Origin: a virus
Taxonomy: Duplodnaviria; Caudoviricetes
Direction: 5' to 3' (one strand)
DNA: 64,000 nucleotides
IMG/VR virus record: IMGVR_UViG_3300002835_000001
Span: 32,001 to 96,000 of that record
A program made the translations under genes and the position numbers. Numbering within the stretch: the stretch's first letter is position 1; the number at the start of each line of letters is the position of its first letter. Of this stretch, positions 31,199 through 31,288 are shown piece by piece. The notes under the pieces were generated by a model that saw nothing but the letters and a program-made list of their open reading frames with translations, had not been told where the DNA came from and did not search any database.

Positions 31199-31288
31199 CG
31201 GGGAGGAAGAGATTCGGACTCTCGATTGAATGTTAAGTCCAATAGCAGCTTCGGAGGCTGTCGGTTTAAACCACTCACCCACCTCCCC
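31199..31288 (-). tRNA. class II tRNA with serine-type body and CCG anticodon
   Basis: manual fold: acceptor GGGGAGG/CCTCCCC, D-arm GGT..ACC with GG, anticodon stem ACAGC/GCTGC with loop CT-CCG-AA, 21-nt variable arm, T-arm GAGAG-TCCGAAT-CTCTT, discriminator G73; no encoded CCA. Confidence 0.8.

Follow-up and report, generated by a model that had tools for sequence, protein, structure and literature searches.

We analysed a 64,000-nucleotide (nt) stretch of a Caudoviricetes genome, positions 32,001 to 96,000 of IMG/VR record IMGVR_UViG_3300002835_000001 (the window in what follows), and focus on the only tRNA gene that it carries. ARAGORN places this gene at 31198-31288 on the minus strand with the anticodon CCG, and a local scan with the Rfam tRNA model returns 31199-31288 (minus strand; 50 bits, E 7.9e-10). 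A sequence-only reading of the window had described it as a serine-type body with an arginine anticodon. We refer to this chimeric class II tRNA as X; its parts, and the stretch directly upstream, are as follows (fractions give positions identical to the tRNAs of Bacteroidota).

31199..31288, minus strand: X, chimeric class II tRNA, anticodon CCG; 90 nt, G1 at 31288, G73 at 31199 (ARAGORN, Rfam)
31263..31288, minus strand: acceptor 5' strand and D arm (positions 1-25); 22-24/26 with tRNA-Ser(GCU), 12-13/26 with tRNA-Arg(CCG); U20
31245..31262, minus strand: anticodon arm (positions 26-43); 16/18 with tRNA-Arg(CCG), 8-12/18 with tRNA-Ser(GCU)
31225..31243, minus strand: long variable arm, 6-bp stem and 7-nt loop, read from the sequence; pairs kept by double changes relative to bacterial tRNA-Ser
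31199..31224, minus strand: C48, T arm, acceptor 3' strand and G73 (positions 48-73); 18-23/26 with tRNA-Ser(GCU), 10-15/26 with tRNA-Arg(CCG)
31289..31318, minus strand: conserved A/T-rich upstream stretch, in relatives ATTTTTTGTTTATATTA...; together with the tRNA about 93-94% identical in all relatives

Read on the minus strand, which the earlier description had left unstated, X has all of the features reported for it: a 90-nt class II tRNA with G73, G26:U44, G13-A22, G15-C48 and a variable stem of 6 base pairs (bp). The 7-bp acceptor stem begins G1-C72, G2-C71, G3-C70 and is followed by U8 and G9; the D stem has 3 bp plus G13/A22 and closes a 9-nt D loop (A-G-U-G-G-U-U-U-A), which makes position 20 a U, and leads into G26. 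The anticodon stem consists of four Watson-Crick pairs and an A27/C43 mismatch, and its 7-nt loop, C-U-C-C-G-A-A, carries CCG at 31252-31254 (minus strand), reads CGG as had been stated, and is followed by U44. The variable arm, with its 6-bp stem and 7-nt loop, abuts C48, and both G15 and C48 are present; the 5-bp T stem includes G49/U65, the T loop (U-C-C-G-A-A-U) has C55 at 31217, the discriminator is G73, and CCA is not encoded.

What kind of tRNA is this? The variable region, positions 43 to 49, spans 21 nt and so is not a class I short loop. The acceptor and T stems have 7/5 geometry, with U8 facing U65, which makes an eighth acceptor pair impossible. A selenocysteine tRNA (tRNA-Sec) is ruled out by this geometry (not 8/5), by a D stem of 3 bp rather than 6 bp and by CCG in place of UCA, and the best-scoring Rfam family in the local scan is RF00005. 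X has the marks of a tRNA-Ser (a paired long arm abutting position 48, G73 with G1-C72 and G2-C71, and a serine-type core) except for a serine anticodon, NGA or GCU, in place of which all 26 known copies have CCG. From tRNA-Arg it has C35, G36 and G73, and lacks A20 and the class I architecture.

Those 26 copies lie in 26 independent IMG/VR contigs, a recurrence that chance does not explain. A search of IMG/VR with the exact anticodon stem-loop returned 23 contigs, the same search with the anticodon wild-carded returned 22 of these 23 and nothing further, and a search with the T arm and acceptor added three; in none of the relatives does X itself have a serine anticodon. The copies are near-identical: apart from position 43 and a variable loop of 6, 7 or 9 nt they show no true variation, and the few extra differences in two copies at contig ends (L003 and L016) are probably assembly errors. 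The variable stem is invariant although its loop drifts in length, and in three relatives (L024-L026) U43 restores an A27-U43 pair. By contrast, the flanking DNA of the relatives is only 70-93% identical or rearranged, with different genes inserted on either side, and in many of them about 2 kb separates X from the orthologue of gene 30663-31133; the A/T-rich stretch of about 30 nt accompanies X, and beyond it the flanks differ or are replaced. Aligned with bacterial tRNA-Ser, X yields a consensus class II cloverleaf of 26 pairs, 11 of which are kept by two-sided changes, among them pair 3-70 (A-U to G-C), pair 31-39 (U-A to C-G) and three pairs of the variable stem. Because X is near-invariant in 26 contigs with diverged or rearranged flanks, the comparison indicates that it is under purifying selection, a working gene and not a decaying one.

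Decay had been left open on account of the A27-C43 mismatch and C55, and the absent CCA could be added to that list. We find it very improbable that X arose by assembly or sequencing error, or that it is a tRNA-Ser pseudogene, whether decaying or accidental. The mismatch is an A27-U43 pair in the three relatives just named, and working bacterial tRNAs often leave 27-43 unpaired (PMC13092985); other, ordinary-looking phage tRNAs of many isotypes share the C55 T arm; and CCA is likewise not encoded in many tRNAs of the cluster carried by G001, a 251-kb relative. Every helix of X is kept by compensatory changes, and its anticodon arm coherently copies that of a functional tRNA-Arg, unlike a product of random drift. 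Many samples contributed to the 26 diverged contigs. Of the sampled words of 30000-33000, 96-100% are present in metagenome runs from lakes and fresh water (2016 and 2023-24), most of them marked as possible sources. Riverine metatranscriptome contigs cover X with the flanks of its relatives in two runs (X19 and X21), from libraries that may contain DNA, and cover gene 30663-31133 in four runs, which is not proof of transcription, ends or CCA addition; nor does a lack of cover elsewhere carry any meaning.

The distribution of X is narrow. A pattern search of IMG/VR that combined the serine D arm with the CCG loop returned copies of X only, plus chance matches within protein genes, and within IMG/VR the design is confined to one phage lineage. 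A blastn search of X against 50,697 GenBank phage records gave no match, so that at this sensitivity no cultured phage carries it.

The serine character of the body is clear from several comparisons. Hidden Markov models (HMMs) for each isotype, built from phage tRNAs with the anticodon removed and with all tRNAs sharing the D-arm word of X excluded from the Ser set, score X at 25.3 bits for Ser, against 8.2 for Tyr, 5.9 for Arg and 3.5 for Leu; control scores are inflated, the G001 tRNAs having been in the training sets. The D-arm word retrieves dozens of phage tRNA-Ser genes (UGA, GCU and GGA) and almost nothing else, its 15-nt core, GTGAGTGGTTTAAAC, being common to dozens of them. In a comparison set of 301 sampled Bacteroidota genomes, the best matches of X are tRNA-Ser(GCU) in 12 of the 14 loci with an ARAGORN tRNA, the full-length ones 70-73% identical. 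These results uphold the serine-type body of the sequence-only reading and add to it a point that had been missed: X is not a tRNA-Ser with a point-mutated anticodon, since its whole anticodon arm reproduces almost exactly that of a Bacteroidota tRNA-Arg(CCG). A canonical tRNA-Arg(CCG) pattern matches 110 of the 301 genomes (147/301 for an ACG control pattern), and 14 of the 110 matches read G-ACAGC-CUCCGGA, which equals X from G26 to G36. The U43 form of the arm (L024-L026) agrees at 17/18 positions with tRNA-Arg(CCG) of the Bacteroidota genomes G203, G139 and G020, and the one position of the arm that always differs is 37, A in X for G, a change with natural counterparts in the A37 loops of Bacteroidota loci L372 and L373. 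G203, G139 and G020 occur in the match lists of both tRNA-Ser(GCU) and tRNA-Arg(CCG).

X is a chimera of a Bacteroidota-type tRNA-Ser(GCU) body and a Bacteroidota-type tRNA-Arg(CCG) anticodon arm, and both parts point to Bacteroidota. The most economical reading of its origin would be an anticodon-arm swap between the tRNA-Ser(GCU) and the tRNA-Arg(CCG) of one bacterial lineage; stepwise convergence from a serine arm like that of L348, the alternative, would need six substitutions. Under an arm swap, U43 would be ancestral and C43, now in the majority, derived.

We propose, with a probability of roughly 0.45, that X is a serylated reader of CGG, possibly with minor arginylation, and causes Arg-to-Ser mistranslation. 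Recognition by seryl-tRNA synthetase (SerRS) depends on the long arm, G73, G1-C72, G2-C71 and G30-C40 and disregards the anticodon, whereas arginyl-tRNA synthetase (ArgRS) has A20 as its main determinant in bacteria (E. coli and Thermus), along with C35, G36 or U36, and A73 or G73 (PMC9976931). All SerRS determinants that can be read from sequence are present in X, including G30-C40. A20 is absent in 26/26 copies; it is present in the phage tRNA-Arg(UCU) and tRNA-Arg(ACG) and in all Bacteroidota tRNA-Arg(CCG) genes that we fetched (GGAUA), and selection on X retains the long arm and never creates A20. Host SerRS, ignoring the anticodon and reading the long arm, G73, G1-C72 and G2-C71, would then charge X with serine, and ArgRS, deprived of its main mark, would charge it poorly or not at all. 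With its native Arg(CCG) arm, the seryl form would be expected to compete with the cell's own tRNA-Arg(CCG) at CGG codons and put serine in place of arginine. Phage proteins would mostly be spared because CGG is the second-rarest codon of the phage, and the damage would be greater for any proteome of the infected cell that is rich in CGG. Parsimony argues in the same direction, as an arginine-charged CGG reader would lie one mutation from the phage's tRNA-Arg(ACG), or could be had as a whole host copy, and a serine body appears to have been used instead. Codon supply makes no sense as a purpose, X serving a near-unused codon while the G001 cluster has no Ala or Val tRNA. That tRNAs of serine identity insert serine when given other anticodons has been demonstrated in E. 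coli (PMC5389517) and yeast (PMC6827378).

The points that weigh against serylation concern the identity rules, the fold of X, the phage's own use of CGG, and the host. The rules come from E. coli and Thermus and may not be those of the host. With three of the four Arg determinants (C35, G36 and G73) and a complete native Arg(CCG) arm, some arginine charging is plausible. G3-C70 replaces the A-U or U-A pair of nearly all tRNA-Ser genes examined and might weaken recognition by SerRS. Energy minimization favours another fold of X over the cloverleaf (-31.1 versus -25.6 kcal/mol), and together with C55 this leaves room for a weaker function on the ribosome. In the alternative fold, the 5' strand of the variable arm is predicted to pair with the T arm over 8 bp at 31207-31243 (minus strand), with a contribution from C55, and may represent an alternative conformer.

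The fold and C55 lend themselves to a different view, in which the role of X would be mainly non-translational: a decoy or competitive inhibitor for a host enzyme acting on tRNA-Arg(CCG) or tRNA-Ser, a donor for a tRNA-dependent transferase, or an element that regulates or processes the neighbouring transcripts. We judge this improbable. It would account for C55 in place of the near-universal U55, for a T stem weakened by G49/U65 and for a predicted fold that joins variable arm and T arm, yet C55 T arms are found in ordinary-looking phage tRNAs of many isotypes, and the four helices and the 7-nt anticodon loop of X are canonical. X does stand alone at a hypervariable junction, about 200 kb from the tRNA cluster of G001, with its own conserved upstream motif and beside a 13-gene cluster for glycan and fatty-acyl modification; no Fem-type or other tRNA-dependent transferase and no aminoacyl-tRNA synthetase was found, however, near X or in five larger related contigs, and the association of X with CGG-bearing genes would be a coincidence. 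The A/T-rich stretch at 31289-31318 is possibly a phage promoter or processing signal; the surroundings of X contain neither a sigma-70 promoter nor an intrinsic terminator, and the stretch itself has no sigma-70-type match on the minus strand.

How the phage uses CGG bears directly on its meaning, and here the genes around X are needed. X lies at the junction of a plus-strand sugar and acyl cluster with a minus-strand structural module that comprises a 1450-aa fibre, two Laminin_G_3 proteins and a virion protein:

17574-30668, plus strand: continuous 13-gene sugar and acyl modification cluster with several GT1, GT2 and GT4 glycosyltransferases, a DegT aminotransferase and methyltransferases
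31350..32075, minus strand: virion structural protein gene (phrog_15727), directly upstream of X; one CGG codon
33609..37961, minus strand: putative fibre gene, 1450 aa, Ser/Thr-rich repeats with units such as SLSSSVATTTSGLSSSIG, upstream of X; six CGG codons

The fibre gene matched neither a Pfam nor a PHROG family and is presumably a fibre from its repeats and neighbours. CGG is the second-rarest sense codon of the phage, at 0.48 per 1000, with 129 in-frame occurrences against 2295 and 2050 out of frame. The three CGG codons listed earlier (at 4594, 47259 and 62255) are all real, but the list was incomplete: there are 12 in-frame CGG codons in the open reading frame (ORF) set of the window, seven of them in the two genes upstream of X (six in 33609-37961 and one in 31350-32075). 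In the 12 kb upstream of X, CGG is 3.6-fold enriched (1.39 versus 0.38 per 1000), whereas CGC, CGA and CGT are depleted; in the fibre gene it makes up 25% of Arg codons, as against about 1% elsewhere. This enrichment is the opposite of what a strong, self-harming serine inserter would predict, and we cannot fully explain it.

The CGG codons of the fibre encode the arginine of repeated motifs, and paralogous repeats use AGA at the same place. In families of reciprocal best hits across six genomes there are 37 CGG columns, 32 of which vary, and the alternatives include Arg codons in 21, only Lys in four, only Gln in three, other non-Ser codons in four and Ser in none. In alignments of the fibre, invariant arginines such as those in ...GLNLT-R-IADG... 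and ...GGGDISST-R-TINVGAGNG... are encoded now by CGG, now by AGA, CGA or AGG, and in pairwise tallies Ser accounts for less than 1% of the residues aligned with CGG. (A comparison of the retention of CGG and of other rare Arg codons by codon identity was inconsistent across identity bands and was dropped.) Because CGG columns stay conserved as arginine and are never serine, selection treats CGG as Arg in phage genes, with no recoding to Ser. The suggestion that the phage recodes CGG to serine is not supported by this result, which is among the outcomes that the sequence-only reading had itself named as refuting it.

Columns conserved as arginine, and CGG enriched specifically in the genes upstream of X, are what would be expected if X were a true arginine tRNA in a class II body, its Arg(CCG) arm (C35 and G36) and G73 sufficing for host ArgRS while G3-C70, C55 or the A/U-rich arm repel SerRS. 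X would then supply arginine at CGG for late structural genes, perhaps as a defence-resistant version against host tRNA targeting or for a host that reads CGG poorly. We regard this as unlikely, if a serious contender. The codon read by X is indeed the only Arg codon not covered by the Arg(UCU) and Arg(ACG) tRNAs of G001, but it is too rare to call for a dedicated tRNA, while the cluster has none for Ala and Val. The arm is 16-17/18 identical to bacterial tRNA-Arg(CCG), yet a normal tRNA-Arg(CCG) would be far easier to obtain; SerRS determinants have been kept under selection, where losing the long arm would be the simplest escape from SerRS; and we know of no natural class II tRNA that is charged according to a class I anticodon. 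A20, one substitution away, is missing in 26/26 copies (PMC9976931). Phage tRNAs can escape nucleases of the host through altered anticodon loops (PMC10264068), and position 37 is where X departs from the G203-type arm. Weak evidence for a host in need of such a tRNA comes from the five Bacteroidota draft genomes with the tRNAs most like those of the phage cluster, where BLAST with a tRNA-Arg(CCG) query found none. In these drafts (G281, G269, G153, G273 and G289; loci L379-L386), to which no whole-genome tRNA finder was applied, BLAST found other tRNAs only, and some Bacteroidota lineages may be without a dedicated CGG reader. Arginylation would make X the first tRNA-Arg of class II and would overturn the A20 requirement of bacterial ArgRS.

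The carrier is a T4-like jumbo phage lineage with a genome of about 330 kb and 32% GC, as implied by the five larger related contigs (93-251 kb, CheckV completeness 28-75%). The major capsid protein of G001 is of a distant T4 type, and by this protein it stands closest, among cultured phages, to Flavobacterium phage immuto and Microcystis phage Mel-JY01 (amino-acid identity of about 41-42%). In G001, 21-22 ordinary tRNAs form a cluster (L054, G001:44000-52000; ARAGORN finds 21 and Rfam adds a weak match at G001:50496-50565) that serves 18 amino acids, mostly with U34 or G34 anticodons and including Ser(GCU), Ser(UGA), Arg(UCU), Arg(ACG), two Leu and Tyr. Neither ArgRS (PF00750) nor the class II synthetase core (PF00587) was found in the five larger contigs at their 28-75% completeness, and the genes that flank X in the relatives (radical SAM, a methyltransferase, a DUF401-like transporter and unknowns) point to no tRNA-related function. 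The 13-gene cluster of the window also encodes a hexapeptide acyltransferase, a PhyH dioxygenase, KAS III, SDR and a nucleotide-sugar epimerase, the last with 68% DNA identity to Flavobacterium phage immuto. The best GTDB homologue of its DegT aminotransferase, 64% identical, lies on a 13.4-kb contig (L262, NZDU01000051.1) binned as Pacearchaeota; this is probably a fragment of a related phage misbinned into an archaeal metagenome-assembled genome and is uninformative on the host. Farther along the window, at 53412-59421 (minus strand), is a run of at least four radical-SAM-type genes beside unknown genes, with PHROG matches at 53412-54386, 55366-56643, 56612-57937 and 58024-59421.

Why would a phage keep a serylated CGG reader? 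Its purpose may be host shut-off or anti-defence, competition, or controlled ambiguity. We entertain, as a doubtful but concrete idea, that X is a codon-selective mistranslation weapon that changes Arg to Ser in new host, defence-system or competitor proteins and to which the AT-rich phage would itself be nearly immune. The chimeric build would suit such a use, a tRNA-Ser body of the host lineage allowing efficient charging by SerRS and a tRNA-Arg(CCG) arm allowing efficient competition at CGG. The exact donor-type Arg(CCG) arm is present in four tested Bacteroidota genomes, which are 55-61% GC; CGG makes up 15-26 of every 1000 codons in them (25-36% of Arg), a 30- to 50-fold contrast with the phage, and three of the four (G203, G139 and G020) also hold tRNA-Ser(GCU) genes among the matches of X. 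If the host is CGG-rich, the damage done by seryl-X to its proteins would exceed that to phage proteins 30- to 50-fold. The Bacteroidota genomes that best match the phage tRNA cluster do so about equally well, however, and range from 31-54% GC and from 0.2 to 20 CGG per 1000; in low-GC Bacteroidota CGG is as rare as in the phage, and any contrast in CGG between phage and host is hypothetical. If the host is AT-rich, the rationale for a weapon fails.

Natural tRNAs whose body and anticodon disagree are, to our knowledge, rare, described from bacteria, nematodes and yeasts and almost never with a demonstrated purpose, and our literature searches returned no description of a phage tRNA of the design of X. 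Its two sources are recognizable among ordinary Bacteroidota tRNAs. The tRNA-Ser(GCU) genes, such as L345 of G203 and L346-L359, resemble X in the acceptor stem, D arm, T arm, G73 and class II form, and differ from it in the anticodon (GCU for CCG) and in lacking its G3-C70, C55, G49/U65, G26/U44 and A/U-rich variable stem. The tRNA-Arg(CCG) genes, such as L366 (G203), L367 (G139) and L369 (G020), share with X the G26, the ACAGC strand and the C-U-C-C-G of the loop, and unlike X have a class I body with A20, other acceptor, D and T arms and no long arm.

Other viral contigs contain further mismatched tRNAs. L111:13710-13800 (plus strand) is a serine-type long-arm tRNA with the D arm of X, G73, G3-C70 and the anticodon GAG (Leu CUC and CUU), and is a second canonical 7/5 tRNA in phage DNA that joins a serine body to a foreign anticodon. 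Two more viral tRNAs with long arms and serine-like D arms lie at L131:7398-7489 (minus strand) and L191:13287-13376 (plus strand), one with GUA and G73 and the other with GCA (Cys); bacterial tRNA-Tyr normally has A73. On an unrelated viral contig, L093:393-463 (plus strand) is a 74-nt class I tRNA with CCG, U1-A72 and G73 and no A20; this glutamine-like body on a CGG-reading anticodon is reminiscent of the CGG-to-Gln reassignment found with Codetta.

In the Codetta cases, which are CGG reassignments in low-GC bacteria (PMC8629427), a dedicated tRNA(CCG) stands beside a tRNA(ICG) for CGU, CGC and CGA, and the tRNA set of our phage has the same layout. The meaning of CGG becomes separable because one dedicated tRNA(CCG) reads it while tRNA(ICG) reads the other three codons. 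The tRNA(CCG) of those bacteria is of Trp or Gln identity and conserved columns follow the new meaning, whereas in the lineage of X the columns stay arginine. Closer in design are the allo-tRNAs of soil bacteria, which like X, compared here at the sequence level, combine a long arm and serine identity with a non-serine anticodon (PMC5389517); the Arg anticodon GCG is among their commonest, and in E. coli the members tested are toxic and insert serine, some at sense and some at stop codons (PMC5389517). Allo-tRNAs are defined by a 12-bp branch split 8/4 or 9/3, a definition that the 7/5 branch of X falls outside, and X further differs in being phage-borne, in having CCG and in being a recognizable chimera with a native tRNA-Arg anticodon arm.

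Engineered or natural mistranslating tRNA-Ser anticodon variants in yeast, flies and humans (e.g. PMC6827378) insert serine because SerRS ignores the anticodon, to which X would be analogous, and the Ser-tRNA(CAG) of CUG-clade yeasts (PMC2246281, PMC6041473) is a serine tRNA with a foreign anticodon that has been fixed as a true reassignment; the toxicity of such tRNAs scales with codon usage and tRNA activity (e.g. PMC6827378, PMC2246281, PMC6041473). Serine charging would make X the first phage device to alter what a sense codon means in the infected cell, and with it would come a new class of mechanisms, for host takeover or competition, that exploit differences in codon usage. These eukaryotic tRNAs are cellular, and either point-mutated or part of a true reassignment, whereas X is virus-encoded, strictly conserved, abundant in nature and recurrent in lake metagenomes from 2016 to 2024, is carried by a phage whose own genes give CGG no serine meaning, and in its modular build resembles an engineered CGG-to-Ser device.

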